Notes: generated by a model from the sequence alone, not told the origin. Shown: positions 5,208 to 54,761, counted from the stretch's first letter. The stretch is 64,000 nt of DNA from Candidatus Roizmanbacteria bacterium (GCA_024654535.1 JANLHL010000016.1:160626-224625); one strand, 5' to 3'. Program-made: numbers and translations.

Positions 5208-5330
5208 TTTTTGACATTTGAACTTTGACATTCAATTGGCATTTGACATTGAGATTTGGTCATTTATTTGTCATTAGAACTTTGTCATTTGACATTAATT
5301 GGATATTTGATATTGGATATTGGATATTTT
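5208..5330 (+). repeat. Heptamer array, forward orientation (TTTGACA/TTTGAAC/TTGGATA words)
   Basis: Reads tttgaca tttgaac tttgaca ttcaa ttggca tttgaca ttgaga tttggtca tttat ttgtca ttagaac tttgtca tttgaca ttaa ttggata tttgata ttggata ttggata. Same vocabulary as the nine other intergenic sites. Confidence 0.9.
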
Positions 5331-12126: not shown

Positions 12127-12200
12127 TATCCAATATCAAATATCCAATATCCAATAAAGTTCAAATGTCAAATGTCAAAATCAGATACTTGTCATTTGCA
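12125..12200 (-). repeat. Heptamer array, reverse orientation (TATCCAA/TGTCAAA words)
   Basis: aatatccaatatcaaatatccaatatccaataaagttcaaatgtcaaatgtcaaaatcag is the reverse complement of the vocabulary at 5208-5330. Confidence 0.9.
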
Positions 12201-12214
12201 TATAGGCTATAAGT

Positions 12215-12478
12215 TTGATTGAATATACGCTCATGGATAAAGCAACACTATATAAAAAGGGTGACATGGAGATTCGGGTACTGAGAAGCACCTGTATCGG
12301 AGCAGCAACATGTGTGGTGTACGCACCCAGCACGTTTGATCTTGATGATGACAGCATAGCGATAGTTAAAAATGGGCAGTGGGATAGCTTAGAAAAGATT
12401 ATTGCAGCTGCGCAGTCGTGCCCCGTTGTCGCAATCGAGGTATATGTGAAGGGTAAAAAAGTGTACCCCAAAGGGTAA
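12215..12478 (+). CDS. Small single-cluster ferredoxin
   Basis: MEIRVLRSTCIGAATCVVYAPSTFDLDDD...AAAQSCPVVAIEV: C-x2-A-x2-C ... C-P pattern of mono-cluster 3Fe/4Fe ferredoxins. Real start uncertain (TTG 12215, ATG 12233 or ATG 12266). Confidence 0.7.
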   Translation: MIEYTLMDKATLYKKGDMEIRVLRSTCIGAATCVVYAPSTFDLDDDSIAIVKNGQWDSLEKIIAAAQSCPVVAIEVYVKGKKVYPKG

Positions 12479-12573
12479 TATCCAAGTTCAAATATCCAAC
12501 TCGCCTGCCGGCGAGGCAGGTAAATGTCAAAGTTCAAATGTCCAGTTCTGATATTTGATATTGGGTATTGGAT
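12477..12573. repeat. Compact palindromic heptamer element (reverse words - GC hairpin - reverse words - forward words)
   Basis: aatatccaagttcaaatatccaa | ctcgcctgccggcgaggcagg (12500-12520) | taaatgtcaaagttcaaatgtccag | ttctgatatttgatattgggtattggat. The GC core CGCCTGCC...GGCGAGGCAGGTAAA is shared with 37175-37220 and 44464-44529. Confidence 0.85.
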
Positions 12574-12576
12574 CTT

Positions 12577-32426: not shown

Positions 32427-32488
32427 AATATCCAATTTCAAATATCCAATATCCAATAAAATCAAAATGACCAAATTAAAATGTCCAA
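32427..32488 (-). repeat. Heptamer array, reverse orientation
   Basis: aatatccaatttcaaatatccaatatccaataaaatcaaaatgaccaaattaaaatgtccaag. Confidence 0.9.
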
Positions 32489-32588
32489 GAAAACTAATAA
32501 TATAAAAGGTCATTGGAAAAGGGCAGAAGAGTAATTTTGTAGAGCATATGCGATAGTCTGTGTTTAAACTACATGTAAACTAAGAATC

Positions 32589-32921
32589 ATGTATGACCTG
32601 GAATCGAGAACAACTACGCTTGGACAAAATATAGTCGCATTCGTAAAAAAGCTTCCACGTAATCAGATTACCGATTCATTACTGATACAACTTATTCGTG
32701 CAGGAACTAGTATTGGCGCAAACTACTGTGAAGCAGATGGCGCAATGACAAAGGCTGATTTTAAAAATAAGATAACAATCTGTCGCAAAGAAGCAAAGGA
32801 GACTCGCTACTGGCTACGCGTAGTATGTTCAACATATCCTGGTCTTGAGAATAAGACAGATCTCCTTATACAAGAAGTTAGAGAATTGATATTCATATTC
32901 TCCGCGATTCTTAAAAAGTAA
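32589..32921 (+). CDS. Four-helix-bundle protein (23S rRNA intervening-sequence protein / Avd-like family)
   Basis: 110 aa. LLIQLIRAGTSIGANYCEADGAMTKADFKNKITICRKEAKETRYWLRVV is the hallmark core (S-x-x-A-N-I-x-E-G ... E-x-x-Y-W-L) of this family. TAAACT 32576-32581 lies 7 nt before ATG. Confidence 0.85.
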   Translation: MYDLESRTTTLGQNIVAFVKKLPRNQITDSLLIQLIRAGTSIGANYCEADGAMTKADFKNKITICRKEAKETRYWLRVVCSTYPGLENKTDLLIQEVRELIFIFSAILKK

Positions 32922-32925
32922 CTTT

Positions 32926-33067
32926 TTATTGGAAATTGGATATTGGATATTTATTGGGCTTTGGATATTGGATATTGGGTATTAACTTGATATTTGTCAT
33001 TGGGATTTTGTCATTCAATTGCCATTTGTCATTTGAACTTGGACATTTATTAGATATTGGATATTGG
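32926..33067 (+). repeat. Heptamer array, forward orientation
   Basis: tttattggaaattggatattggatatttattgggctttggatattggatattgggtattaacttgatatttgtcattgggattttgtcattcaattgccatttgtcatttgaacttggacatttattagatattggatattgg. Confidence 0.9.
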
Positions 33068-33072
33068 CTTTG

Positions 33073-33134
33073 CCCGCCGAAGCTCGACGAAGCGAATCTC
33101 GCCTACGCACAAGGCATCGGCGAGCGAAGGCGGG
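33073..33134. repeat. GC-rich imperfect hairpin appended to the heptamer array
   Basis: cccgcc (33073-33078) ... ggcggg (33129-33134), with inner ctcgcc (33098-33103) / ggcgag (33119-33124). Shares the words CTCGCC/GGCGAG/CGACGAAGC with the other GC cores. Confidence 0.7.
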
Positions 33135-35760: not shown

Positions 35761-37131
35761 ATGGCAAAAATAATCAAAAAATACCTACCTATAACCTTAA
35801 TATTACTGGCTGCTACATTTCTGCGCTTTTATCGCTTGAAAGATTTTTTTCCGTACACCATCGATGAAGAATACTTGTCGCAACTTGCCTGGACAATTGT
35901 GCACGATTTCCATGTTATTTGGATCGGAGTGAGCGCAGGCAGTACAAACTTTTATTTAGGCCCTGGATATATATATGTCACCGCATTTCTCTTGTGGATA
36001 GGGAGGGGGAATCCACTCGCACTTGCATACTGGGTATCGTTTATTGGAGTTGCAACGGTTTTCAGCATGTGGTGGATAGTGAAAAAAGCTATAACACCGA
36101 AAGCCGCTCTTATCGCTTCATCGATCTATGGTTTTTCATACTTTATTGCTCTGTATGACCGCCATTTCTGGCCACCAATCGTAAGTTTCACACTACTGTG
36201 GATGGCGTATTTTTTATGGGAAGCGCGCAAGGATACACGCTGGCTTATACCATTTTTTTTCGTTCTTGGAGTAAGTTTACATTTGCATTTATCACTTTTC
36301 GTTTGCGCCCCTATCGCACTATGGGTAGTTCTACGAAATAGAAAACAACTACGTCTTAGCACGATACTACTATATGTCATAAGCTATGTACTGGCAGTAA
36401 GCCCGCTTATTGTCTATGATTTTGTCCACAATTTCGACAATCTGCGAGCACCTTTTTTAATGCTTTCTCATAGTTCAGGTGGTTCTCTCAACCTAGTCCC
36501 TCGACTTTCTACTATGTTGATTGTTGTGAGTAAAATAGTAGATCCAGCCACTTCAACCGTCTTTTTGGGAACGATACTTGTTCTGTTTTGTGCACTAGGA
36601 GTCTTTGCTCTTCGAAAAAAAATACCCAGCTTTATTGCACTTTCTCTAGCAACGTTCGGTTTGTTAACAGTACTTTTTTTCATCTACCCAGGGCGAGTTG
36701 AAGAATACTATCTTATCGGCACGTTTCCATTCATAGCAGTTCTTTTTTCCTATGTATTACAAAGCTTCGTTCCACAGAAACCACTCATCTTTTTGCTTAG
36801 CATATTTCTCGTCTCAAGTATTTTTATGCTCGCGACCACAAAACCTCTTTACAACGCTTACTCACAGAAAGAAAAAGTAATTGAAGCAATTAAAAAAATA
36901 ACAAAAAATGAGCCTATACTTTTAAATACTAAAGGCCCTTACGTATTCGACGGAGGGTGGCATTTTCTCTTTACACAAGCAGGTATTCCGGTTACACAAG
37001 GATCCTCAAGCGAAATGTACAACTGGATATACACACAGTACTATACCCCTCCAACAAGAGCTGTCTACACAGTGATTCTAGAAAATAAAGATGGAGGAGT
37101 AAAGTATACGATAAACCCAAATATCCAATAA
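35761..37131 (+). CDS. GT-C membrane glycosyltransferase (ArnT/PMT-like)
   Basis: Polytopic. First loop FPYTIDEEYLSQLAWTI (DEE). The 3' end runs into the next array. Confidence 0.7.
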   Translation: MAKIIKKYLPITLILLAATFLRFYRLKDFFPYTIDEEYLSQLAWTIVHDFHVIWIGVSAGSTNFYLGPGYIYVTAFLLWIGRGNPLALAYWVSFIGVATVFSMWWIVKKAITPKAALIASSIYGFSYFIALYDRHFWPPIVSFTLLWMAYFLWEARKDTRWLIPFFFVLGVSLHLHLSLFVCAPIALWVVLRNRKQLRLSTILLYVISYVLAVSPLIVYDFVHNFDNLRAPFLMLSHSSGGSLNLVPRLSTMLIVVSKIVDPATSTVFLGTILVLFCALGVFALRKKIPSFIALSLATFGLLTVLFFIYPGRVEEYYLIGTFPFIAVLFSYVLQSFVPQKPLIFLLSIFLVSSIFMLATTKPLYNAYSQKEKVIEAIKKITKNEPILLNTKGPYVFDGGWHFLFTQAGIPVTQGSSSEMYNWIYTQYYTPPTRAVYTVILENKDGGVKYTINPNIQ

Positions 37132-37398
37132 CCAATATCCAATAAATGTCAAATGACAAAGTCCTAATGACAAACCCGCCTGCCCGCTTCGACGCGAGGC
37201 GAGCCGGCGAGGCAGGTAAAGTTCAAAATCCCAATATCAAAAATAGTCGTCATTGCGAGGAACCCGCCTAAGGCGGGGACGAAGCAATCTAATCTGGAGA
37301 GATTGCCACACTCAACTTCGTTTCGCTCGCAATGACAAGGTTATTGGGCATTGGAACTTTGTCATTTATTTGATATTGGATATTTGAACTTTGACATT
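37119..37398. repeat. Composite palindromic element A (reverse heptamers - GC hairpin - reverse heptamers - GTCATTGCGAG hairpin - forward heptamers)
   Basis: Layout: 37119-37173 reverse words, 37175-37216 cccgcctgcc...ggcgaggcagg, 37217-37245 reverse words. 37248-37338 forms a stem tcgtcattgcgag / ctcgcaatgacaa enclosing cccgcc-taa-ggcggg (37263-37277) and gcaatct / agattgc (37284-37290 / 37300-37306). 37339-37398 carries forward words. Homologous to 44437-44726. Confidence 0.9.
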
Positions 37399-37450
37399 AA
37401 CAAGTTATTTGTTTTTCACAGCTTTTTTCAGTCTATGATAGACTAGTTTT

Positions 37451-38209
37451 ATGACAATAACAGCCCTCGTTCCAGCACGCAAACAAGATGATACGTATTT
37501 AAAACAGTGTATCGAAAGCTTAAGCTGGTGCGATAGTATCGTAGTGTTGTGGATGGGCGGGGAAAAGCCACTATTTTTACAAAATAAAAAAATAGCTATT
37601 ATTGAAAAAGCGTGGGAAGGAACACCATTTATTCGCGTACAAAAAGCTATAAACTGGGCTATTAAAAACGTTGAATCAGATTGGTTTCTAAGAGTCGATT
37701 CAGATGAAATAGTTACCCCCGAGTTAGCGAATGAAGTACAAAAAATAATACAACAAAACGATACGTTTGATGCATACGGAATTCCTCGAAAGCAATTTTT
37801 TTGGGGAGATTTTCTCAAAGGAGGGGACTGGGCATTTGACCGTTTAGTTCGATTATTCAAAAAGGGGAAAGCTCACTACAGTGAAAAAAATAGTGTTCAC
37901 GAACAGTTCGCTGTGAACGGAAAGACAGGGTATATAAAAAATACACTACTTCATTATTCCCATCCGACACTCGCTGTAGCCGTAGAAAAATTTAATACAT
38001 ACACGAGCCTCGAAATAAAAAATATACATACTTCGGTAGTCAATGCATATGTGCACATGTTTTTTTTGCCACCATATATATTTTTACGATGGCTGCTGTG
38101 GCACCACGGCTACCGCGATGGTATGCGCGGAATCGTAGCCGCGTCGATGCGCGCATGGTACGAGTTTCTATTGTGGTCTAAATATATTGAGTCAAAAAAA
38201 TTAGCGTAA
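37451..38209 (+). CDS. GT2 glycosyltransferase (LPS-core KdtX/WaaE-like subgroup)
   Basis: ITALVPARKQDDTYLKQCIESL and RVDSDEIVTPEL motifs. C-terminal amphipathic/TM tail. Confidence 0.75.
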   Translation: MTITALVPARKQDDTYLKQCIESLSWCDSIVVLWMGGEKPLFLQNKKIAIIEKAWEGTPFIRVQKAINWAIKNVESDWFLRVDSDEIVTPELANEVQKIIQQNDTFDAYGIPRKQFFWGDFLKGGDWAFDRLVRLFKKGKAHYSEKNSVHEQFAVNGKTGYIKNTLLHYSHPTLAVAVEKFNTYTSLEIKNIHTSVVNAYVHMFFLPPYIFLRWLLWHHGYRDGMRGIVAASMRAWYEFLLWSKYIESKKLA

Positions 38210-39634
38210 GAACTGCTGAGCATCAATAGTGTAACTATCTACTCTTGGCGTATCTTTATACCCGTAGAGCACGGTTATTTTTTTTCCAGGAAAATAAAAA
38301 TCCACAAAGTCTTGTCCGTGGAGTGTTGTCTCCAACTTTCTTGACCATCCCCACGCATCGGGTTTTCTATCTGGATCTTTAAAGTAAATACTTGAATGAC
38401 GAGCACTATTTATTTTATGCGTATTCATATAGGATTCCACATTTCGCGATATTGAGCTCTCATACATATAGTTACTCGTTCGCTCATGAACACGCACTCC
38501 AAAAAAATTCCACGTTATATATAGGAGTATCAAGAATAGAGAGGCTATCCGCAATCGACTATTTTGCATGGCCTTCAAAAGAACATACGCTTGTATGAAC
38601 GATACAAAAATAAGCGGCACTGTTAAACGTACCATCCACTTGTGGATAATAAGCACCGTCGGCGAAATAAATAGCAGAAAACTAAACAACAAAAATAACA
38701 ACATTCGTATATTCATTTTTCTAACGAGTGTACGATACTGTGCTATTATCATGCCAATAAATGTTGCACTATACAGAAGTAAACTTCCCATATATATTTT
38801 TGCATCTGTGCTTTCAAAATATGCCCAGACCGCAGGTAGTGGAGGTCTCAAAATACTCGTAAAGTAATCTGGCAAAAAATTTGGTAAACCGACCGACCAT
38901 AGGCTGTACCACATTGTATTATTCACTATCAATCGAGGATTCAGTTGTAACGCATATGTTTCTTCATGTATCACAACACTTGAGCTTCCTGATCTATAGA
39001 GAATAAGAGCTATAACGGAAAGTAAGATATACATTATATATACTTTTTTGCTGTGGTGACCAAATTGAGGTATTTTAAAAAAACTGCCAATGACCAAAAA
39101 AATTGGGAATAATACCGCGCTCTCTTTTGACAAAAGCGCACATACAAAAAATAGAAAACTTACTCTATAACTCTTATTAAGAAATGTATAAAAAGAAATG
39201 ATGAGAAAGGTAAACGCAAATACTTCCTGTGCAGTACCCAGATAATAGAGTTGAAAAACATGGGTGAAATGTAAAGAATACAATAGTATTGCAAGATACG
39301 ATAATGTACTACTACTTGTCATCTTAACTATCGCTTTATACAGAAAATATATTCCTATGAAAAAAAGTATAAAAACAAGAGCGTGTGCAAACAAAATAGA
39401 CTCGTGAAAAATATGTGTGTAAAAATAGAATACCTCTGATGAGAGTGGACGATAAAAAAAAGTCTTTAGAGGGGAAAAAAAATCTATAAAACCTTGCATA
39501 TTCGATATACGAGAAATTCTTAAAAAAAAGAAATCATCTTGAAAATAAAAAGTGTTAAATGCGTGAAAAAAAAATGCAAACACGAGAACGAACAAAAGAG
39601 AAAACTTTGCTCGTATCGATGACAATATTTTCAT
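38201..39634 (-). CDS. Polytopic membrane protein, GT-C-like partner of the upstream polyprenol-P GT2
   Basis: 477 aa with many TM helices and an acidic first loop FYFQDDFFFLRISRI. ATGA-type overlap with the GT2 gene at 39631-39634. Confidence 0.55.
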   Translation of the reverse strand: MKILSSIRAKFSLLFVLVFAFFFHAFNTFYFQDDFFFLRISRISNMQGFIDFFSPLKTFFYRPLSSEVFYFYTHIFHESILFAHALVFILFFIGIYFLYKAIVKMTSSSTLSYLAILLYSLHFTHVFQLYYLGTAQEVFAFTFLIISFYTFLNKSYRVSFLFFVCALLSKESAVLFPIFLVIGSFFKIPQFGHHSKKVYIMYILLSVIALILYRSGSSSVVIHEETYALQLNPRLIVNNTMWYSLWSVGLPNFLPDYFTSILRPPLPAVWAYFESTDAKIYMGSLLLYSATFIGMIIAQYRTLVRKMNIRMLLFLLFSFLLFISPTVLIIHKWMVRLTVPLIFVSFIQAYVLLKAMQNSRLRIASLFLILLYITWNFFGVRVHERTSNYMYESSISRNVESYMNTHKINSARHSSIYFKDPDRKPDAWGWSRKLETTLHGQDFVDFYFPGKKITVLYGYKDTPRVDSYTIDAQQFLR

Positions 39635-40368
39635 GAAGAGAAAGATGTTTTAAGAATTACCCACAAGGCATATAATCCGTCTTTCCAGCCAATTTTCTTT
39701 CCTTCTTCATACGTTCTGCCTTGGTACGATATGCCCACTTCATATATTTTTACTTTTTTTATCTTCGCAATTCTTCCCGTTATTTCTGGCTCAAATCCAA
39801 ATCGTGAGCACGATAGCTTTGGTGCAATTTTGCGTATAAGTGTTCCTTTAAATACTTTATAACCGGTTTCCATATCGGTTAGATTAAGGTTAGTAAACAT
39901 ATTTGAAAACATTGTCAGTGCTACGTTGACTGTATAGTGCCAATAATATAGAACCCTGTGTGGTCTATTTGAAATAAATCGTGACCCAAAAACAACATCT
40001 GCTTGATAATCAAAAAATGGCTCCAAAAGAGTGGGGTAATCGTGTGGGTCATATTCAAGATCCGCGTCTTGCACAAGCACAATGTCTCCCGTGGTCTTTA
40101 GAATACCTGTTCGCAATGCCATACTTTTTCCCATATTCTTTGCATGCTCCACTATGATTATGCTTACAGTAGGGTATTTTTTCAGAAAAAGTTTAGGTAC
40201 TTTTCGAATGACATTAACAGTTCCATCGGTCGAACCATCATCAATCACTACTATTTCTTTCAACATTCCTTTACTATCGGCCTGAACAACCCTTATGAGA
40301 GTTTCCAAAATATAATCATGTTCGTTATATACTGGGATAACTATTGATAGTATTCTCTGTTTGAGCAT
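39631..40368 (-). CDS. GT2 polyprenol-phosphate glycosyltransferase (DPM1/GtrB/ArnC-like)
   Basis: LSIVIPVYNEHDYILETL, VIDDGSTDGT, QDADLEYDP and FGSRF motifs. Confidence 0.85.
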   Translation of the reverse strand: MLKQRILSIVIPVYNEHDYILETLIRVVQADSKGMLKEIVVIDDGSTDGTVNVIRKVPKLFLKKYPTVSIIIVEHAKNMGKSMALRTGILKTTGDIVLVQDADLEYDPHDYPTLLEPFFDYQADVVFGSRFISNRPHRVLYYWHYTVNVALTMFSNMFTNLNLTDMETGYKVFKGTLIRKIAPKLSCSRFGFEPEITGRIAKIKKVKIYEVGISYQGRTYEEGKKIGWKDGLYALWVILKTSFSS

Positions 40369-40374
40369 AGCAAA

Positions 40375-40409
40375 ATTTTAGCACACAAATACGACTTATG
40401 TGCTAGGAT
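40375..40409. promoter_or_regulatory. Back-to-back divergent extended -10 promoters in a 47-bp intergenic region
   Basis: Minus strand: TGcTAAAAT (rc 40375-40383), 6 nt before ATG 40368. Plus strand: TGcTAGGAT (40401-40409), 6 nt before ATG 40416. Confidence 0.5.
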
Positions 40410-40415
40410 TGCTAT

Positions 40416-41888
40416 ATGATAAAAAGTGCCGCAATTACTCGGCTATTTCTATTTACCCTTCTTACCGGGTTTTTACTTCGTATACTTTGGCTGTCTCATT
40501 TTCCTGTGTTTACCGATGAGGCTATATATGCACACTGGGCTCAAGGTCTTGTCAATGGAACACTCTCGCCATTTATTTCAATATCCGACGGTAAAACACC
40601 ACTTTTTATTTGGGCAATAGCAGCAGTCGTTAAACTTGGCATTCCATACACGTTAGCAGGAAGAATACTATCGGCATGTGGATTCATTGGGACTGCACTC
40701 TTTATATATTTGCTATCAAAAAAAACTATGAAGGGTTTTTGGATTGTAGTTCCAACATTTCTCTATGCACTGTCACCCTTCACTCTTTTTTTTGAACGAA
40801 TGGGCCTCATGGATTCGTTGCTTACTTTTTTTTCTACTGGCTTTCTGTATTTCACCTATCTGTTTTTAACCAAGAAAAATTCAATGTATAGAGTGCTTTT
40901 AGCGAGCTTATTTCTATCTCTTGCATTTATGACAAAACCTTCAGCTCTGCTTTTTGTCTATACCAGCACACTTATTCCGCTTCTATATATTTTTATAGAC
41001 AAGAAGAAAGCTTTGTATTCGTTATTACTCGTAATACCAACATTGTTTATTTTGTTTTTACTATCTCGTTCAAGCGGATTCAGTGCTTACAGCTTTAAGA
41101 ATATGGAGTTTACATACCCTCTGACAACAGACTGGCAGATACTCTTGAACAACCTCATTATGAATATCAAAACTTTAGCCCCTGCATTCGCACTCTATTT
41201 TTTACCAGTTCTTATTCTCTTTCCATTTGCTCTCTATTATCTAACAACTGAGAAACAGTATGAATTGCTCCTACAGATTCTTCTCTATATGCTCATTCCT
41301 GTTGGTATCGTCATGGTGTTTGGTCGTATAGTTTTTTCTCGCTATTTTCTTTCATTCGTTCCGTTAATCTTTTTTGCTCAAGGATACACACTTATGCATA
41401 TATCCAACGCAAAAAACAGTTTGGTTAAAAGGGGACTACTCGGTATTAGCCTATTTGGAACACTACTATACTTTGCCTATGGATCGAGTATGACTTTGAC
41501 AGACCCTTCTCATGCATTCTTATCCAAACAAGATCGATGGCAATACATAACCAGTACTGCGTCTGGTTTCGGGATGACAGAATCGATAGATTTTATTAAA
41601 AAAATGCAGACAGAAGCAACAATAGTCACTACTCAAGATTTTGGTAACTTACCATATATTTTTGATTTTGCATTTGAGCATGAACCCAAAATAACCATAA
41701 AAGGAACATGGACCCAAAACCCAAAAACAATACAATCTGAAATGAGCAATATAGATACCCCGTTATACGTTGTCTATAATCTACCTTTAAAAGATATGCC
41801 CAAATCTTCAACAACATTAAAACAGCTATTCGCATATACTCGGCCAGGAAATATAAGCGGGATACGTATATTTGAGCTTATTCGTTAG
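40416..41888 (+). CDS. GT-C membrane glycosyltransferase (ArnT/PMT, GT39/83-like)
   Basis: Polytopic. First loop FPVFTDEAIYAHWAQGL (DE). Confidence 0.75.
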   Translation: MIKSAAITRLFLFTLLTGFLLRILWLSHFPVFTDEAIYAHWAQGLVNGTLSPFISISDGKTPLFIWAIAAVVKLGIPYTLAGRILSACGFIGTALFIYLLSKKTMKGFWIVVPTFLYALSPFTLFFERMGLMDSLLTFFSTGFLYFTYLFLTKKNSMYRVLLASLFLSLAFMTKPSALLFVYTSTLIPLLYIFIDKKKALYSLLLVIPTLFILFLLSRSSGFSAYSFKNMEFTYPLTTDWQILLNNLIMNIKTLAPAFALYFLPVLILFPFALYYLTTEKQYELLLQILLYMLIPVGIVMVFGRIVFSRYFLSFVPLIFFAQGYTLMHISNAKNSLVKRGLLGISLFGTLLYFAYGSSMTLTDPSHAFLSKQDRWQYITSTASGFGMTESIDFIKKMQTEATIVTTQDFGNLPYIFDFAFEHEPKITIKGTWTQNPKTIQSEMSNIDTPLYVVYNLPLKDMPKSSTTLKQLFAYTRPGNISGIRIFELIR

Positions 41889-43489
41889 GGTGTAGCAACT
41901 CTATACACGGTTACATCTCTATTGCTAAATACAGAGTGCAAAAATGAATAGTGCGGTAATGTCCCGAGCTTTTTTTCATCCGATCCATAGACAACATACT
42001 CTATGTTATTGTTCTTCAAAAATTCAAATGCCTTAGCCTTTGTTTCACTACCAGAATAAAACGAACTAACGAGTATAAACTTTTCATAAAATTGAGGCGT
42101 CTGAATTATGTGACCAAAATATACTTTTGAACCAGTAAATGGAGGTATATGGCTTGACGTTACATAGGCAGCTAACACATTCGCAGGAGTTTTTTTTGAA
42201 AGAAAAGCGTACATATCACGCGTTGTATTTGGCTGATAATACCAAACATTCTCCTCCGGAATTTCATCAACCCTACGCTGGTATACAGACAGCGTCGACA
42301 GTGGAACTAAAAACAACAAGAATATGGTGACAATAGTTCTCGACATTCCCCATGTCTTTTTTTGCGAATATATAAAAATAAGGACACTTACAACAATCGG
42401 GAAGAAAAGTCCTCGTAAAAAAAATCTATTAATACCTAATGGTGCGAAGTTCAAAGCAATACTCGTGAGTACCCATAGATTGAGAAAAATATACCTACTA
42501 TCTCGTAAAGCCTTTTTACTGAAAAGCTGGAGGATATACAAAACTCCAAGAATGCCATATCCGAATATAATATGAACTATGGTTACTTGACTCAACTGTT
42601 GTGTGGCAACAGACGCAAAGCCTGCATTTTTTAGCGACAGATAATAATAAATATCAACAACTCCCAATATTGCATAGCCAAATAAAAACAAAGCGACAGA
42701 TATTTTATCTTTTTTCTGCAATAATATAAATATAAACCCAATAATGCCTATGCTCAGTAGGTAGTACGGATAGAAAATCATAAGAAAAAAAGATGATAAT
42801 GCAAATAGAAATATACGTTTTCTGTTTGTTGTAAGCGACACAAACAGAGACACGAGCGAAGTAAGATATAGCATAGTGCCAATAGCCTCATGACCCCTTT
42901 GGATAGAACTATGAAAAGTAAAACTGGTTACAAACATATCGGCGGATCCAAATGCACCAGAAACTATCCAACCCATTCCTCCACCAAATAGTATGAGAAA
43001 AAAAGCGAGCAAACGTACCTTATACGATTGAATAAAATAACCAATCAGCCAGTATATTGCCATACACAGAAAAAAACCAGCTACAGTACTGACCACATGG
43101 AACAGTACGAATGGATCGACATGGGGAAAACTATACCCGACAAATGTATAAATTGGGTAGAGCAAAGCTCCTCTCGTAGCATCGACTGTATAAAAATTCT
43201 GCAACAATAAATGTCCCTGTTGCCCTGAGCGTATTGCCGTTACATAGACATTAATATCCCATGGATCAAAATACGCAGCCTTACCCATATACATAAATCC
43301 GGGGGGGGTTTTTAAATATGCTAAATAATCAGGAAAGTGTACATCGAACAACATAAAAAAGGCTATGAATAATGCAATGAATAAAGCGACGTAGCGCTTA
43401 TGTTTTACGATTCCCAACCATGCGGATGATCTTTGTACCATAGGGTTAATGAATGAATACTTTGTTGAAGAGATCGTTTCGGACTCCAA
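41885..43489 (-). CDS. Polytopic membrane protein (GT-C-like, unassigned)
   Basis: 534-aa ORF with more than 10 hydrophobic helices and a C-terminal soluble domain. The track start overlaps the galE 3' end by 85 nt. Alternative ATG 43441 (MVQRSS...) overlaps it by 37 nt. Confidence 0.5.
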   Translation of the reverse strand: MESETISSTKYSFINPMVQRSSAWLGIVKHKRYVALFIALFIAFFMLFDVHFPDYLAYLKTPPGFMYMGKAAYFDPWDINVYVTAIRSGQQGHLLLQNFYTVDATRGALLYPIYTFVGYSFPHVDPFVLFHVVSTVAGFFLCMAIYWLIGYFIQSYKVRLLAFFLILFGGGMGWIVSGAFGSADMFVTSFTFHSSIQRGHEAIGTMLYLTSLVSLFVSLTTNRKRIFLFALSSFFLMIFYPYYLLSIGIIGFIFILLQKKDKISVALFLFGYAILGVVDIYYYLSLKNAGFASVATQQLSQVTIVHIIFGYGILGVLYILQLFSKKALRDSRYIFLNLWVLTSIALNFAPLGINRFFLRGLFFPIVVSVLIFIYSQKKTWGMSRTIVTIFLLFLVPLSTLSVYQRRVDEIPEENVWYYQPNTTRDMYAFLSKKTPANVLAAYVTSSHIPPFTGSKVYFGHIIQTPQFYEKFILVSSFYSGSETKAKAFEFLKNNNIEYVVYGSDEKKLGTLPHYSFLHSVFSNRDVTVYRVATP

Positions 43490-44412
43490 TTAAGAACCGT
43501 ATGAGCTCGTGTTATATCCGCAACCATTTTGGCGTATTCACCTTCACGTGCAGTTGTTTTTTTTAGATCGAAATGAACATTTGTCTCCTTTTGTACAGCA
43601 TTGACTATTTCAAGTACTGAGTTTCCCGTGCCCGTACCAAGATTAATTGTTACCGGCTTTCCATCGTGCATCAAATATTCAAGAGCTTGTATGTGTGCCT
43701 CGTTGAGATCAACGACATTTATATAATCACGGATAGGTGTTTTGTCTATCGTATCTACTGTAGGACATGTTAAATAAAATGGCTCTATTCCCAGTGCACC
43801 ACGGACTGCATTTTGCACCAGTAAGACTGATGGTTTTTTTGAATCACCAATGACTCCATCGTCACTCGCGCCACACACATTAAAATAACGCAAAACAACA
43901 TAAGTCAATCCTTTTGTTTGTGCATACCAATCAAGAATTTTTTCAACCATTTTTTTCGACTCTCCATAGGGGTTGGTTGGATTCGTTGGATGCATTTCAT
44001 TTATCGGCAATTTCTGAGCCTCGCCATAAACAGCACAGGTCGACGAAAAAACAATTTTGCGTATATTGTGCTTGTTCAACTGCTCGATAAAGTTGAGCGA
44101 TCCATAAGTATTGTTGTAAAAATACTTATGGGGATTTTTCATAGATTCATCGACCAAACACGATGCAGCATAATGAATGACTACATCTATTCCGCTCTCA
44201 CGTCTTAATATTGAAGATAAATCGTCGTGCAAATCTGCCTCATAGTATGAAAGTTTGCTTTTCCCAAATTTCTTCTGCATGAATTCAAGAGGAGCTTTAT
44301 ACCCTGTTGTGAAATTATCCACTCCAACCACCCTATATCCCTTTTCAAGAAGTAAATAGGTAGCCACAGATCCAATATATCCACCGGCCCCAGTAACAAG
44401 AATTGTGCTCAT
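43405..44412 (-). CDS. galE: UDP-glucose 4-epimerase
   Basis: ILVTGAGGYIGSV, catalytic YGESK and the overall GalE layout (NVCGA, PIRDYI-V-DL). TGcTATACT (rc 44419-44427) 6 nt before ATG. Confidence 0.88.
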   Translation of the reverse strand: MSTILVTGAGGYIGSVATYLLLEKGYRVVGVDNFTTGYKAPLEFMQKKFGKSKLSYYEADLHDDLSSILRRESGIDVVIHYAASCLVDESMKNPHKYFYNNTYGSLNFIEQLNKHNIRKIVFSSTCAVYGEAQKLPINEMHPTNPTNPYGESKKMVEKILDWYAQTKGLTYVVLRYFNVCGASDDGVIGDSKKPSVLLVQNAVRGALGIEPFYLTCPTVDTIDKTPIRDYINVVDLNEAHIQALEYLMHDGKPVTINLGTGTGNSVLEIVNAVQKETNVHFDLKKTTAREGEYAKMVADITRAHTVLNWSPKRSLQQSIHSLTLWYKDHPHGWES

Positions 44413-44436
44413 TTTACTAGTATAGCATGTAAGAAA

Positions 44437-44726
44437 ATCAAATATCCAATATCAAATGTCAAACCCGCCTGCCCGCTTCGACGCGCCTACGTCGACGCAG
44501 GCGCGAGGCGAGCCGGCGAGGCAGGTAAAGCTCCAAATCCCAACGCCAAAAACGATCGTCATTACGAGGTGGTAATTTAGTTTGTCGTTGCAAGGAGCGA
44601 AGTGACGAAGCAATCTTGTCAAAAGACAGGGGATTGCTTCGCTACGCTCGCAATGACAGGGTTATTGGACATTGGAGCTTTGTCATTTATTGGGTATTTG
44701 AACTTGGATATTGGATATTGGTTATT
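44437..44726. repeat. Composite palindromic element B (homologue of element A)
   Basis: Same order of parts as 37119-37398. The GC hairpin (44464-44525) is about 20 nt longer and contains the near-perfect palindrome gcgcctacgtcgacgcaggcgc (44483-44504). Core stem tcgtcattacgag / ctcgcaatgaca, with gaagcaatc / gattgcttc (9 bp). Forward words at 44660-44726. Confidence 0.9.
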
Positions 44727-44753: not shown

Positions 44754-47192
44754 TTATATTAACGAATTTTGCAGATGGTAGTAGGCAGGTTTGTTCTTAT
44801 ACCGTTTTACTGTCAGACGAATTATTTCCTCCAAAAAGTCTCCATAGTTAAATCCCTCTATTTCAGCTACCTTAGGAATACAATCCATCGTATTTATTGA
44901 TGGGTTCGGATTCAATTCAAGCACATATGGATTCCCAGCACTGTCAACCCTCACTTCCACTCTACCGTAATCATGACAATTGAGTATATTGTACGTATCC
45001 AAAGCTATTTCTGAAATCACTGTTAGCAACTTTTGGCTGACACTCTTGGGCGGTCTCTGGATAATTATTTTGCTATATTCAGATGCTGCTCTATTCCATT
45101 TTGCATCATATGCAAACACATGCCACATACCTTCTGGCATCTTAGTAAAAATAGAACGGGACAACGGCAACACACGCAAATCATCATCCTGACTTCCGAT
45201 TATAGATACGTCATATTCGTCTCCTTCTATATATTCCTCTACCAAAGCAGGATTATGTAAACCGTTGATAACACGATCCATTTGCTCAAGAAGATCTTTT
45301 TTATTCGTTACAACAGAGTCATTGGTAATCCCAATAGAATTGTCAGAGTTTGCCGGTTTCACAATTAACGGATAACGTAAGTCTTCATTGATCTCATCAT
45401 CAAGTGTATAAGCGTAATCCCAACGAGGTGTAGGAATATTGTGGAAATTCAAAAGTTTTTTCACCTTAATTTTATCGATACAGAGCGCAAGCGTGAGTGG
45501 ATTAGAACCGGTATAGGGAACACGCATAATATCAAATATCGATGCTGCATGAGGCTCAAGTAGGCTTGAGTTATTTATTCTCTCGCAAACATTAAATACC
45601 AAATCTATATCAGATCGCATGAGATGAGAAAGAGTAGGGGAGAGCTTATTAAAATCTAAAAACTCTGTTACATAACCCCTACTTTGAAGTGCGTGCTCTA
45701 TATTCTTGCCAACGTTCATAAGATCTTTCTCAACAGCATTATTCGACTCCTTTTCACTTTCATACACGTTGCAGGCAATGCCTATTTTGAGTTTTCGTAT
45801 GTTGGCTACATCTAAACGCCTTAGGCGCTCAATTTTCTCACTACCTTGATGCTTCCCGAGTATTAACGCAGAAGAAAACTTATTTTTACGCTGCGTTTTT
45901 CCAAGTGTAGAAGTTGCTTTAAAAGGTGTCACCTCAATATCTATTACTTTCTCCACCTCTTCAATGGCTCGGTCAGCATCGGCATAAGTATCACCCTTTA
46001 CCAAAACCCACCCTATGTAATCGTAACCATCGGGAGGGATGAGTATTTTATCACCGACCTGCTTTGAAACGAGAAAATCGACTACAGATGGATTGCTTTT
46101 TAGGCCTTCGAATCCACGCAGTTTAGTGATTACCCCCGAATCATCTGGAATAAAGAATTTCCCAACAATACACGAGTCGGTTTTTTTTACTGTATTATGT
46201 ACGTGAACACCAAGAGCTATGTAGCACGCCGCTTGAATCAAATCAAAATCATGCACTTCTTTCACAGCTCTAAAGGTATAATCACCTCCCATACGAGAGG
46301 CAATTTCTATTATTTTTACTCCTTCTTCTGTAAGTTTTAGTTCTGCATGCGCCAAACTATTTCGGACTCCGAGTACGATGAGTGCGGACTCAACAGCATC
46401 TTCTATAGAGTCAATGTCTTCTTCATCTATGCGTGGTGGTAAATAGTCACCCGTCTCCATAAAGAAGGGAAGGCTCATAGCTGTTTTTTCATGAATACCA
46501 ACCACATGAGGTATGCCATGCTGGATGTAACATTCAGCACTAAACTCCGGACCATCTATATAGCTTTGATACACAAACTTTCCCTCGTTATAAATATAAA
46601 TAGGATCAAATTCTGGCGTACAGTTTTTTCTTATGTATGCGTACGCATTTTTGGCTTCATCAACATTGTTAACCCGAACAACAAATTGACTGAGCGATCC
46701 CCCGACCGGTTTAATTATTGCTGGGAATCCTATCTTATCTATTGCTACGGTAAGATCTTCTTCATTTGTGAGGAGATGCTCTCTGATGGCTGGTAATCCT
46801 GCACTATTCATAACCTCTTGCATAAGATACTTACTGCGGGTATTTCTCGCTGCTTCGAGTGAATTTCCAGTAAAACCAAACTTCGCACACACTTTAGCCA
46901 GAAGCTCGATACTATCTTCCCAAAAAGTTAGCGCGCCATCTATATGAACACTCGGATTTTCCGCTATAAAAGTTTCGATAGCAGAAAGTACATTAGCATG
47001 TCTATACGTATCTGCAATAATCCAATGATCTACATAGTAATTAGCCCAGTTTTTAACCTCATTGACAACGACGATTTTCAATCCAAGCTTCTTAATACGT
47101 TGATAAACAAAGCGTTTTTGAATGTACCCAGTATTGAGTATGAGGATTGTTTTCCCTCTAAGAGGATTTTTTATCATTGTATTTGTATGCAT
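44754..47192 (-). CDS. Fusion of two ATP-grasp ligase modules (N-terminal L-amino-acid-ligase-like + C-terminal D-Ala-D-Ala-ligase-like)
   Basis: N-terminal half: FPAIIKPVGGSLSQFV, EFSAECYI, HAELKLTEEGVKIIEIASRMGGD. C-terminal half: DLVFNVCERI, LCIDKIKVKKLLNFHNIPTPRW, YPLIVKPANSDNSIGI, EEYIEGDEYDVSIIG, GRVEVRVDSAGNPYVLELNPNPS. Confidence 0.7.
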   Translation of the reverse strand: MHTNTMIKNPLRGKTILILNTGYIQKRFVYQRIKKLGLKIVVVNEVKNWANYYVDHWIIADTYRHANVLSAIETFIAENPSVHIDGALTFWEDSIELLAKVCAKFGFTGNSLEAARNTRSKYLMQEVMNSAGLPAIREHLLTNEEDLTVAIDKIGFPAIIKPVGGSLSQFVVRVNNVDEAKNAYAYIRKNCTPEFDPIYIYNEGKFVYQSYIDGPEFSAECYIQHGIPHVVGIHEKTAMSLPFFMETGDYLPPRIDEEDIDSIEDAVESALIVLGVRNSLAHAELKLTEEGVKIIEIASRMGGDYTFRAVKEVHDFDLIQAACYIALGVHVHNTVKKTDSCIVGKFFIPDDSGVITKLRGFEGLKSNPSVVDFLVSKQVGDKILIPPDGYDYIGWVLVKGDTYADADRAIEEVEKVIDIEVTPFKATSTLGKTQRKNKFSSALILGKHQGSEKIERLRRLDVANIRKLKIGIACNVYESEKESNNAVEKDLMNVGKNIEHALQSRGYVTEFLDFNKLSPTLSHLMRSDIDLVFNVCERINNSSLLEPHAASIFDIMRVPYTGSNPLTLALCIDKIKVKKLLNFHNIPTPRWDYAYTLDDEINEDLRYPLIVKPANSDNSIGITNDSVVTNKKDLLEQMDRVINGLHNPALVEEYIEGDEYDVSIIGSQDDDLRVLPLSRSIFTKMPEGMWHVFAYDAKWNRAASEYSKIIIQRPPKSVSQKLLTVISEIALDTYNILNCHDYGRVEVRVDSAGNPYVLELNPNPSINTMDCIPKVAEIEGFNYGDFLEEIIRLTVKRYKNKPAYYHLQNSLI

Positions 47193-48586: not shown

Positions 48587-48639
48587 TTGTCATTGCGATC
48601 ATTCCCTCCTGTCATTGCGAGCACAAGCGAAGCAATCTC
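48587..48639. repeat. Remnant of the GTCATTGCGAG / GAAGCAATC repeat (half element, no complementary arm)
   Basis: gtcattgcga at 48589-48598 and again at 48611-48620, followed by gcacaagcgaagcaatctc. No heptamer words and no inverted partner nearby. Confidence 0.7.
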
Positions 48640-48640
48640 A

Positions 48641-54342: not shown

Positions 54343-54476
54343 AATATCCAATAGCAAATAAAGTCCCAATTCCCAATGTCAAAGGTCAAATGACAAATGT
54401 CAGAATTGGACATTGGAACTTTGTCATTTGTCATTCGTCATTCGTCATTCATTTGACATTGGATATTGGATATTGG
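54343..54476. repeat. Palindromic heptamer element C (reverse half then forward half, no core)
   Basis: 54343-54404 holds reverse words (aatatccaatagcaaataaagtcccaattcccaatgtcaaaggtcaaatgacaaatgtcag). 54405-54476 holds forward words, including the exact 7-nt register TTTGTCA TTTGTCA TTCGTCA TTCGTCA TTC (54421-54450) and TTGGATA TTGGATA. Confidence 0.9.
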
Positions 54477-54482
54477 AAACTT

Positions 54483-54498: not shown

Positions 54499-54525
54499 TG
54501 GATACTTCTACCCTCCACATTCCTC

Positions 54526-54555
54526 TTGACAATACCTTGAGAGATGATCCATACT
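54526..54555 (+). promoter_or_regulatory. Candidate promoter TTGACA-18-CATACT
   Basis: TTGACA 54526-54531, 18-nt spacer, CATACT 54550-54555. Same hexamer pair as the rSAM promoter at 12608. It would start a roughly 170-nt leader ending at the 54729 terminator. Confidence 0.4.
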
Positions 54556-54604
54556 GTAATCTCTTGCAATTCTAGTAGTATAAATAGTAAAATATATAAC
54601 TAAT

Positions 54605-54676
54605 ATGTATAAAGACGTTTTGAGAACCGTTATTTTCAGCATCCTCCTCCTTGCAAAAGCGAGGGCGGATGTTTGA
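54605..54676 (+). CDS. Candidate 23-codon leader peptide MYKDVLRTVIFSILLLAKARADV
   Basis: ATG 54605 to TGA 54674-54676. The Ile-Leu-Leu-Leu run (54641-54652) lies on attenuator segment A. The ORF ends just after segment B. TATATA 54593-54598 lies 6 nt upstream. Too short for the ORF track. Confidence 0.3.
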   Translation: MYKDVLRTVIFSILLLAKARADV

Positions 54677-54729
54677 TGGTTTTCAAGACTTCCAGAAAAT
54701 ATCCGCCCGCTAGCCGGGCGGATTTTTTT
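54640..54729 (+). promoter_or_regulatory. Four-segment terminator/antiterminator (attenuator-like) structure
   Basis: Four segments: A CATCCTCC (54640-54647), B GGGCGGATG (54663-54671), C ATCCGCCCG (54701-54709), D CGGGCGGAT (54715-54723) followed by T-run to 54729. A:B pairs 7 of 8, B:C is 8 bp perfect, C:D is 9 bp perfect plus the U-tract, which makes an intrinsic terminator. B and D are direct repeats competing for C. Confidence 0.6.
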
Positions 54730-54761
54730 ATAAGTTAAAACAGGAATGGAGATGAATATAT

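Follow-up and report, generated by a model that had tools for sequence, protein, structure and literature searches.

Composite palindromic elements A and B of a Candidatus Roizmanbacteria genome, probable mosaics of nested intergenic repeats

Introduction

Rickettsia palindromic elements are 100-150 nucleotides (nt) long, occur only in Rickettsia and land in frame in protein-coding genes, where they are tolerated as peptide insertions. In Nostoc, small dispersed repeats (SDRs), imperfect palindromes of 21-27 nt whose function is unknown, are nested in heptamer arrays, in miniature inverted-repeat transposable elements (MITEs) and in each other. Repeats of the STRR (short tandemly repeated repetitive) type have the canonical units CCCCAGT, TTGGTCA and CAACAGT. 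The 2008 account of Elhai et al. in Genome Res 18:1484 reportedly describes STRR sequences of Nostoc with SDRs and MITEs nested in them. From cyanobacteria and Xanthomonas, hairpin-forming heptameric repeats are known that lie between genes and differ from one related strain to the next (PMC2670836, PMC4692102). Slippage was put forward to explain why heptameric repeats are generally in excess in bacteria (PMC4692102), and stabilisation of transcripts was proposed for the hairpin-forming STRR repeats of cyanobacteria (PMC2670836). Here, we describe two composite elements, A and B, in intergenic spacers of a 64,000-nt stretch of DNA (the window; 37% G+C) from Candidatus Roizmanbacteria. In both, arrays of reverse and forward heptamers enclose a GC hairpin (module 2) and a branched palindrome (module 4). 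We consider it probable that A and B are mosaic intergenic repeats in a Roizmanbacteria-like genome of the candidate phyla radiation (CPR), similar to bacterial interspersed mosaic elements (BIMEs) or to STRR sequences with SDRs.

In behaviour, the cyanobacterial STRR heptamers with their nested SDRs and MITEs appear to be the closest described system. The resemblance to STRR sequences, that is, to tandem heptanucleotide arrays in intergenic DNA able to form hairpins (PMC2670836), is one in kind only, since the phylum (CPR) and the heptamer units (TTGGATA, TTTGACA, TTTGTCA) are different; TTGGTCA was seen once among the heptamers listed for 5242-5269. Going by the description of the SDRs of Nostoc, module 2 (24-25 nt, nested, in heptamers) behaves like them, and among the Nostocales module 4 itself is present on an Aulosira plasmid, nested in a MITE-like palindrome. 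With BIMEs and their repetitive extragenic palindromes (REPs), and with the REPIN/RAYT system (PMC3116915), the window shares extragenic imperfect palindromes that form mosaics of fixed order with short motifs, lie after stop codons, are non-autonomous and vary between close relatives. The differences are that module 4 is devoid of a 5′ GTAG (its ends, as read from the sequences, are Y followed by GTCATT), that it is branched and ~80 nt long whereas REPs are simple hairpins of 20-40 nt, and that its sequence is common across phyla whereas REPs are lineage-specific.

Results

Elements A and B have the same parts in the same order

Elements A (37119-37398) and B (44434-44726) are both real. In each, reverse heptamers are followed by CCCGCCTGCC...GGCGAGGCAGG with TAAAG, again by reverse heptamers, by a long stem GTCATTGCGAG/CTCGCAATGAC with inner helices and, finally, by forward heptamers. 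A first reading of the DNA from sequence alone (the sequence-only reading) had described two homologous elements with these ordered parts, and both were found where it had put them; only the start of B had to be moved from 44437 to about 44434. As 5′ arm of the long stem of B it had named tcgtcattAcgag (44558-44568). This was mistaken: a covariance model pairs the 3′ arm with GTCGTTGCAAG (44584-44594), and tcgtcattAcgag is an extra, solo half-site. The features of the two elements are as follows (bits refer to the covariance model).

37119..37174, left arm of A, reverse heptamers AATATCC/AAATGTC/AATGACA
37175..37220, + strand, module 2 of A, GC hairpin CCCGCCTGCC...GGCGAGGCAGG TAAA
37185-37205, nested 21-nt palindromic insert CGCTTCGACGCGAGGCGAGCC in the loop of module 2 of A
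37221..37248, second run of reverse heptamers of A, able to pair with 37369-37392
37249..37336, + strand, module 4 of A, branched palindrome with the outer helix GTCATTGCGAG/CTCGCAATGAC, the side hairpin CCCGCC-TAA-GGCGGG and the inner helix GAAGCAATCT/AGATTGCCAC; 36.8 bits (+), 24.4 bits (-)
37337..37398, right arm of A, forward heptamers (TTGGGCA TTGGAAC TTTGTCA ...)
44434..44463, left arm of B, reverse heptamers
44464..44529, + strand, module 2 of B, of which 51 nt are identical to module 2 of A
44486-44505, extra 20-nt palindrome CCTACGTCGACGCAGGCGCG within the nested 21-nt insert of B
44530..44557, second run of reverse heptamers of B
44558..44583, + strand, solo 5′ half-site GTCATTACGAG of B and a 15-nt spacer
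44584..44657, + strand, complete module 4 of B, GTCGTTGCAAG...GAAGCAATC...GATTGCTTCG...CTCGCAATGAC; 62.8 bits (+), 33.8 bits (-)
44658..44726, right arm of B, forward heptamers

Aligned over the whole length (MAFFT), A and B have 78% column identity and are separated by three large indels. A repeat finder returned homologous direct-repeat blocks of 83, 68 and 48 nt at 82-87% identity and inverted arms that reach 55 nt. In the window, GTCATTGCGAG with at most one mismatch was found 7 times (0.67 expected from shuffles), CCCGCCTGCCCGC 3 times (0.14 expected) and the double heptamer 47 times (1.8 expected). The heptamer arms of A and B are only 82-87% identical, whereas 51 nt of module 2, including the 21-nt insert, are identical in both; this insert was absent from all 156 fetched loci examined (numbered with L in the following). 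The indels between the copies, which preserve pairing, had been taken as variation of the kind expected of a folded RNA or a DNA cruciform. They do keep the pairing, but palindromes nested in the loops of older palindromes describe them better than compensatory evolution of one RNA: the loop in A contains a 21-nt palindrome and the loop in B the same 21 nt with a 20-nt palindrome inside, so that the indels are palindromes in palindromes.

Module 4 belongs to a cross-phylum family

A pattern scan of IMG/VR for GTCATTGCGAG-N55-85-CTCGCAATGAC gave at least 120 loci, with 139 instances among the matches listed. Module 4 (~80 nt; GTCATTGCGAG...GAAGCAATC...GATTGC...CTCGCAATGAC) is a large family that crosses phyla and is present on more than 120 IMG/VR contigs. 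One architecture is found throughout the 139 instances listed. It has outer arms of 11 nt with one covarying flanking pair (C-G in 36, U-A in 10), a variable side hairpin on one side (GC-GAA-GC, GCCC-AAA-GGGC or GCCCGCC-TA-GGCGGGC, for example), inner arms CGAAGCAATCC/GGATTGCTTCG whose tip varies, and CTTCG as short linker, a part that takes the form of a fourth hairpin in some copies. Both outer arms of A (37249-37259, 37326-37336) match the family exactly; in B the 3′ arm is exact, the 5′ arm GTCGTTGCAAG has 2 changes and the solo half-site lies upstream in addition. The inner arms G(A/C/T)(A/G)GCAATC / GATTGC(TT/CG/CA)C and a side hairpin between the 5′ arms are present in both elements. 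The side hairpin is CCCGCC-TAA-GGCGGG in A and GAGCGAAGTGAC, the commonest form of the family, in B.

A covariance model (R1) was built from 59 IMG/VR copies and contained no window sequences. On the + strand it recognised B with 62.8 bits (E 1.6e-14) and A with 36.8 bits (E 2e-7), and it also found the orthologs of A in the related loci L150 and L151 as well as a further copy in L151-L153. Both cores are thus genuine members of the module 4 family. They are different members, with another side hairpin and another loop; module 4 of B resembles a copy of which L151 has the complete form and the window, at 48589-48640, a truncated one.

Outside the viral contigs, module 4 is found on plasmids of Alpha- and Gammaproteobacteria (Novosphingobium, with no fewer than 40 places on one 1.76-Mb replicon of N. 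resinovorum, Methylosinus, Methylocystis, Halomonas and Legionella) and of the cyanobacterium Aulosira; there is no annotation under the copies on these plasmids. The ends are sharp (Y directly before GTCATTGCGAG, R directly after CTCGCAATGAC), and complementarity is at background one base beyond the 11-nt arms. Among 91 copies, none had a target-site duplication in the form of flanking direct repeats of 3-6 nt, flanking repeats of 2 nt were as frequent as expected (6 versus 5.7), and a conserved target motif was not seen. Likewise, no duplication is visible at the insertion junctions of the B site. Module 4 resembles MITEs of the DDE type in being short, non-coding, bounded by terminal inverted repeats, multi-copy and polymorphic between relatives. 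It differs from them in the missing target-site duplication, in that no related autonomous element was seen, and in that the internal structure is conserved and not the ends alone.

The IMG/VR copies have no partner gene in common; their neighbours are unrelated phage genes. Small GIY-YIG nuclease genes lie beside a tandem pair of module 4 in L107 (5330-5830) and near a copy in L145 (9188-9460); with 2 cases in about 140 copies, an association is not shown. A solo 5′ half-site, followed after 10-15 nt by a complete element, is seen in the window (44558-44657) and again in unrelated genomes (L033, L045, L145, L147 and L151). This recurrent layout suggests a stereotyped step of insertion or duplication beside an existing arm. 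On the plasmid of Aulosira laxa (AP018309.1, 160274-161142; L157) module 4 is centred in a larger, MITE-like palindrome with terminal inverted repeats of ~30 nt. Insertion at the apex of pre-existing palindromes applies to the window, to L151 and to Aulosira; as a general rule it was rejected, because the flanks of 89 IMG/VR copies were no more complementary than controls. A full-text literature search with the arm sequences and their translations (RFARND, VIASEAKQS, PPAGEAGK) and on repeats of the CPR retrieved unrelated primers and papers only.

Module 2 is found in other genomes, also inside genes

Module 2 is a GC hairpin of 24-25 nt with the arms CCCGCCTGCC and GGCGAGGCAGGTAAA, in whose loop further palindromes are nested; its core is CCCGCCTGCC, GGCGAGGCAGG and TAAA, with the stem CCTGCC/GGCAGG. 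A scan with one genome per species found it in metagenome-assembled genomes (MAGs) of the CPR (Moran-, Levyi-, Nealson- and Wolfebacteria, Saccharibacteria, Parcubacteria) and of Bacteroidota (Saprospiraceae, Flavobacteriales, Cyclobacteriaceae). As in the window, it lies between A/C-rich short tandem repeats in L128, L130, L131, L137 and L141. Viral contigs contained no exact match, only one chance match inside a collagen-like gene.

All copies of the window are intergenic. Elsewhere, the 24 nt of the hairpin CCGCCTGCCGGCGAGGCAGGTAAA are translated in frame into PPAGEAGK, both in murB of a Parcubacteria MAG (L128, 2990-3075) and in an epimerase gene of a Levyibacteriota MAG (L123, 620-650). 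In the former, hairpin and flanking heptamers make up a segment of 26 residues that has no counterpart in MurB of S. aureus (1hsk). This in-frame position in MurB and epimerase of other CPR MAGs is reminiscent of the Rickettsia palindromic elements, from which module 2 differs by its size of 24 nt, its presence in CPR and Bacteroidota and its intergenic position in the window. A spacer of a Saprospiraceae MAG (L130, 5990-6660) has the heptamer families AAATTCC/AACACAA, AATACCC and ATCCCTG side by side, together with two copies of the GC hairpin of the window, the first unchanged and the other lacking a single base. It looks like a cross-phylum pattern of heptamers plus hairpin.

Empty and differently filled A and B sites in relatives

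The gene left of A has a homolog with 91% identity in L148/L149 and with 74% identity in L150. At the A site of L148/L149 the genes are 89% identical at the nucleotide level as far as the stop codon, and this identity resumes at the start codon of the following gene; between them there is no element A but an unrelated 121-nt palindrome, of which the window has no copy. In L150 and in the syntenic 22-kb L151 (~79% nucleotide identity) element A is at the same place with the same module 4, and its module 2 is the short, slightly decayed CCCACCTGCCAGCGATGCAGGTAAA without the 21-nt insert. A and L150 are 92-97% identical over 37050-37449, compared with 66-88% (~78% on average) for the flanking genes. 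We read this island of identity, which reaches into the 3′ end of the upstream gene, as a recombination tract.

At the B site there is a 27-nt spacer in L155 (ATP-grasp gene 90% identical in amino acids) and, in L151 (ATP-grasp gene 95% identical), a heptamer palindrome of 246 nt whose centre contains no more than a small hairpin, CCTGCCTGCGGCAGGCAGG. Compared with these two, the full composite fills the site in the window alone. A search for empty sites had been proposed as a check on mobility, and the A and B sites are indeed empty or differently filled in L148, L155 and L151. The parts of the elements come and go at orthologous sites and do not follow the phylogeny of the flanks. Over 34638-55916 of the window, L151 is 74% identical in amino acids in the 456-aa gene left of A and 95% identical in the ATP-grasp gene right of B, a mosaic relatedness which indicates that Roizmanbacteria populations have recombined.

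A and B are homologous, have the same direct orientation at a distance of 7.3 kb and flank a block of glycosylation genes. They could also be sites of site-specific recombination at the borders of a mobile glycosyltransferase cassette of 7 kb (37451-44412). We regard this as extremely improbable. It breaks down on relatives in which the gene block is present and the sites are not: in L151 the same block has the same order, and the B site contains neither module 2 nor module 4; in L148 the flanking genes are found with no element A between them. In addition, no recombinase gene is found in or next to the block.

Stable folding of both strands, with no preference for one of them

Element A is located between two genes on the + strand (35761-37131, 37451-38209), and its left heptamer arm contains the stop codon of the upstream gene, which ends at 37131. 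Element B is located between two genes on the - strand (43405-44412, 44754-47192). The nearest named relatives of two flanking proteins are from Candidatus Roizmanbacteria MAGs, and the window contains a cluster for glycosylation of the cell envelope with GT2 and PMT_2 glycosyltransferases, MurJ, epimerases, LytR and an ATP-grasp fusion. A position at boundaries between oppositely transcribed blocks, as assumed before, does not hold, since each element is inside a pair of co-directional genes. A and B have the same orientation in the DNA and their flanking genes are on opposite strands; consequently, the elements are in opposite orientation relative to the transcripts, A sense and B antisense.

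Compared with dinucleotide shuffles, folding z scores were -7.5 (+) and -8.2 (-) for A and -8.9 (+) and -10.7 (-) for B; both strands of both elements fold equally well. In a 61-sequence alignment of module 4, 90% of the cells of the helices were paired, versus 28-40% with a slid partner, and ten pairs changed on both sides. The covariation score was 0.139 versus 0.061 in shuffles, and none of 500 shuffles reached it; the helices thus have statistical support. Rfam 15 had no match in the whole window at gathering score; for A and B at E ≤10 there was only a chance match of 19 bits to the model of the plastid psbA 3′ untranslated region. A hairpin with T-tract, as in intrinsic terminators, is present at 0 sites in A and B on either strand. 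Relative to flanking open reading frames (ORFs), the listed IMG/VR copies of module 4 were sense in 23, antisense in 19, convergent in 18 and divergent in 8 cases; there is no orientation bias over the 42 co-directional contexts.

These data bear on two ways in which A and B could act as RNA. The first is a strand-specific structured non-coding or cis-regulatory RNA whose inner hairpins are swapped under selection for a common fold. The multi-helix architecture with its measurable covariation, the R1 scores, which are higher on the + than on the - strand for both elements, and the side hairpin, which changes its sequence and stays a hairpin, would fit. Nevertheless, we judge this to be very unlikely in view of the missing Rfam family, the opposite orientation of A and B to their transcripts, the even distribution of sense and antisense copies, the close relatives that have the same genes without the elements, and the presence of module 4 in viral contigs, plasmids and many phyla beside unrelated genes. 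Moreover, the arm positions 37:86 and 38:85 are often discordant, in both directions. Of the alternative left by the sequence-only reading, "structured RNA or MITE", the repeat family is borne out by the R1 scores and the empty sites in relatives, but the folded RNA is not, given the Rfam result and the symmetry of the strands.

The second is an RNA role that does not depend on orientation and is under selection, in which the long heptamer stems and the GC hairpins, if co-transcribed, would serve as mRNA 3′ stabilisers, RNase III sites or weak bidirectional terminators between glycosylation genes. Both elements directly follow stop codons of co-directional genes and fold very stably on either strand, the listed IMG/VR copies are more often convergent (18) than divergent (8), and A together with its promoter-proximal flank is more conserved than the coding flanks; the transcript stabilisation proposed for cyanobacterial STRR repeats (PMC2670836) points in the same direction. 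A selfish origin with later domestication would be in keeping with such a role. We consider it rather unlikely, as L148 and L155 do without the elements at the same gene order and as A and B have no hairpin with T-tract, although the genome appears to use such terminators (region of 54730).

A graded series of heptamer spacers in the window

Arrays with a period of 7 (family TTGGATA/TTTGATA/TTTGACA/TTTGTCA; TRF) occupy about 10 intergenic spacers of the window. The usual layout is reverse, then forward heptamers, which gives a long imperfect palindrome. Further members of the series are the following.

54343..54481, bare heptamer palindrome, no module 2 or 4
12479..12574, smaller relative with reverse heptamers, short module 2, reverse heptamers and forward heptamers, no module 4
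12500-12524, short module 2 CTCGCCTGCCGGCGAGGCAGGTAAA
32427..33134, heptamer palindrome, reverse at 32427-32500 and forward at 32925-33070
33072-33134, module-2-like GC hairpin, reverse orientation
48589..48640, - strand, truncated remnant of module 4, outer half-site GTCATTGCGAT, then GTCATTGCGAG..GAAGCAATCTC

The heptamer order TTGGACATTGGAACTTTGTCATTT of 54343-54481 is common to A and B. At 48589-48640, in the LytR/PMT_2 spacer, there is only a 5′ remnant of module 4; the orthologous copy in L151 (8330-8440) is a complete one, which lies nested with the outer half-sites GTCATTGCGAT...CCGCAATGAC on either side. In the centre of the palindrome at 32427..33134 lies a gene for a four-helix-bundle (Avd-like) protein of the 23S_rRNA_IVP family (32589-32921, 110 aa; Pfam 3e-14). 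Of all members of this series, A and B bear the heaviest load.

A mere local duplication, with either of the two elements copied a single time from the other and no family of elements involved, could account for the 21-nt insert that is private to A and B and for the full composite order, which is seen only at A, B and the orthologs of A. It is largely refuted by module copies elsewhere and highly improbable. Copies confined to two loci with identical flanks had been named as its hallmark, and the flanks of A and B are unrelated; further copies were found at 12500-12524, 33072-33134 and 48589-48640, a heptamer palindrome at 54343, and independent module copies in other genomes. Module 4 of B is, in addition, another family member than that of A (62.8 versus 36.8 bits; different side hairpin and loop).

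Some observations on neighbouring spacers may be added. A homolog of the 23S_rRNA_IVP gene is located at the matching place in L150 (6813-7082), where no gene is called. A small ORF for a single-cluster ferredoxin (12215-12478) is bracketed by heptamer arrays (spacer region 12127-12574) like the four-helix-bundle gene. The spacer 54500-54760, which is shared with L151, has a second hairpin and then a hairpin with seven T (GCCCGCTAGCCGGGCGGATTTTTTT), and no Rfam match; this may represent either a small RNA or a true intrinsic terminator.

Discussion

We favour the view that A and B are mosaics of nested intergenic repeat DNA. It takes up what is observed, namely modularity, membership in families, presence and absence at orthologous sites, nesting and the absence of strand bias; how the elements are copied, and that they are selfish, we infer. 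The scaffold would be an inverted pair of degenerate heptamer arrays, which fills many spacers and may have grown by slippage. Small palindromes would be layered into this scaffold: the GC hairpin of 24-25 nt, the palindromes nested in its loop and the branched palindrome of ~80 nt. Module 4 would be non-autonomous and copied by a trans-acting, structure- or sequence-specific machinery that is not encoded nearby, and the copying of hairpin modules would leave no duplication. Composite A would be older than the split from the lineage of L150/L151, or exchanged with it by recombination. The interior of B may have been rebuilt in the lineage of the window with A-like and other donors, either by gene conversion or by re-insertion between homologous heptamer arms. 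Effects on transcripts, such as long double-stranded RNA stems or protection and processing of mRNA 3′ ends, would be an orientation-independent by-product, and a strand-specific RNA from A or B is unlikely.

Several points weigh against this view. The exact order of module 2, heptamers and module 4 was found only at A, B and the orthologs of A, and a junction scan of metagenomes (JGI) gave 4 unrelated loci, so that dispersal as a family is not shown for the composite as such. Complete copies of module 4 number only two in the 64-kb window, plus the one remnant. Covariation of the helices would also be expected of a functional RNA or of single-stranded DNA, and the island of identity around A could equally reflect purifying selection on a functional spacer. 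Finally, genomes with REPs and BIMEs have a Y1 (HUH) transposase gene, RAYT, which the repeats typically flank; phmmer searches with E. coli RAYT and IS200 TnpA (Y1/HUH) queries found no homolog in six-frame ORFs of the window, that is 64 kb of the source genome, and of ~1.3 Mb of fetched loci.

As mosaic repeats, A and B are a familiar kind of repeat DNA in an unfamiliar lineage, and the finding is more extensive than first described. What is unusual is the identity of the ~80-nt element across phyla and the 24-nt hairpin in frame inside genes. It is tempting to speculate, and we do so tentatively, that module 4 and possibly also the 24-nt hairpin represent an undescribed class of mini-elements with a broad host range, whose ends and inner arms are recognised by a widely distributed enzyme. 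We see this as possible but would not count on it. If true, the same sequence would be copied in CPR bacteria, Proteobacteria, cyanobacteria and their phages, and the 24-nt hairpin would tolerate landing in frame in essential genes such as murB.

For annotation of this genome, caution is advised: these spacers, 280-310 bp long, are repeat mosaics that yield spurious ORFs (for example, peptides such as 'DIGYW' and 'HCEE...'). Mosaic spacers can also alter gene ends and are likely hotspots for recombination and assembly error. The orthologous empty and filled sites make up a clean set of junctions before and after insertion. The window joins things that are rarely linked, STRR-like heptamers in the CPR, palindromes in the loops of palindromes and an unannotated cross-phylum element of ~80 nt. 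A dedicated mobilising enzyme, if one exists, would explain a very common, unnamed type of 'dark' intergenic DNA in bacteria.

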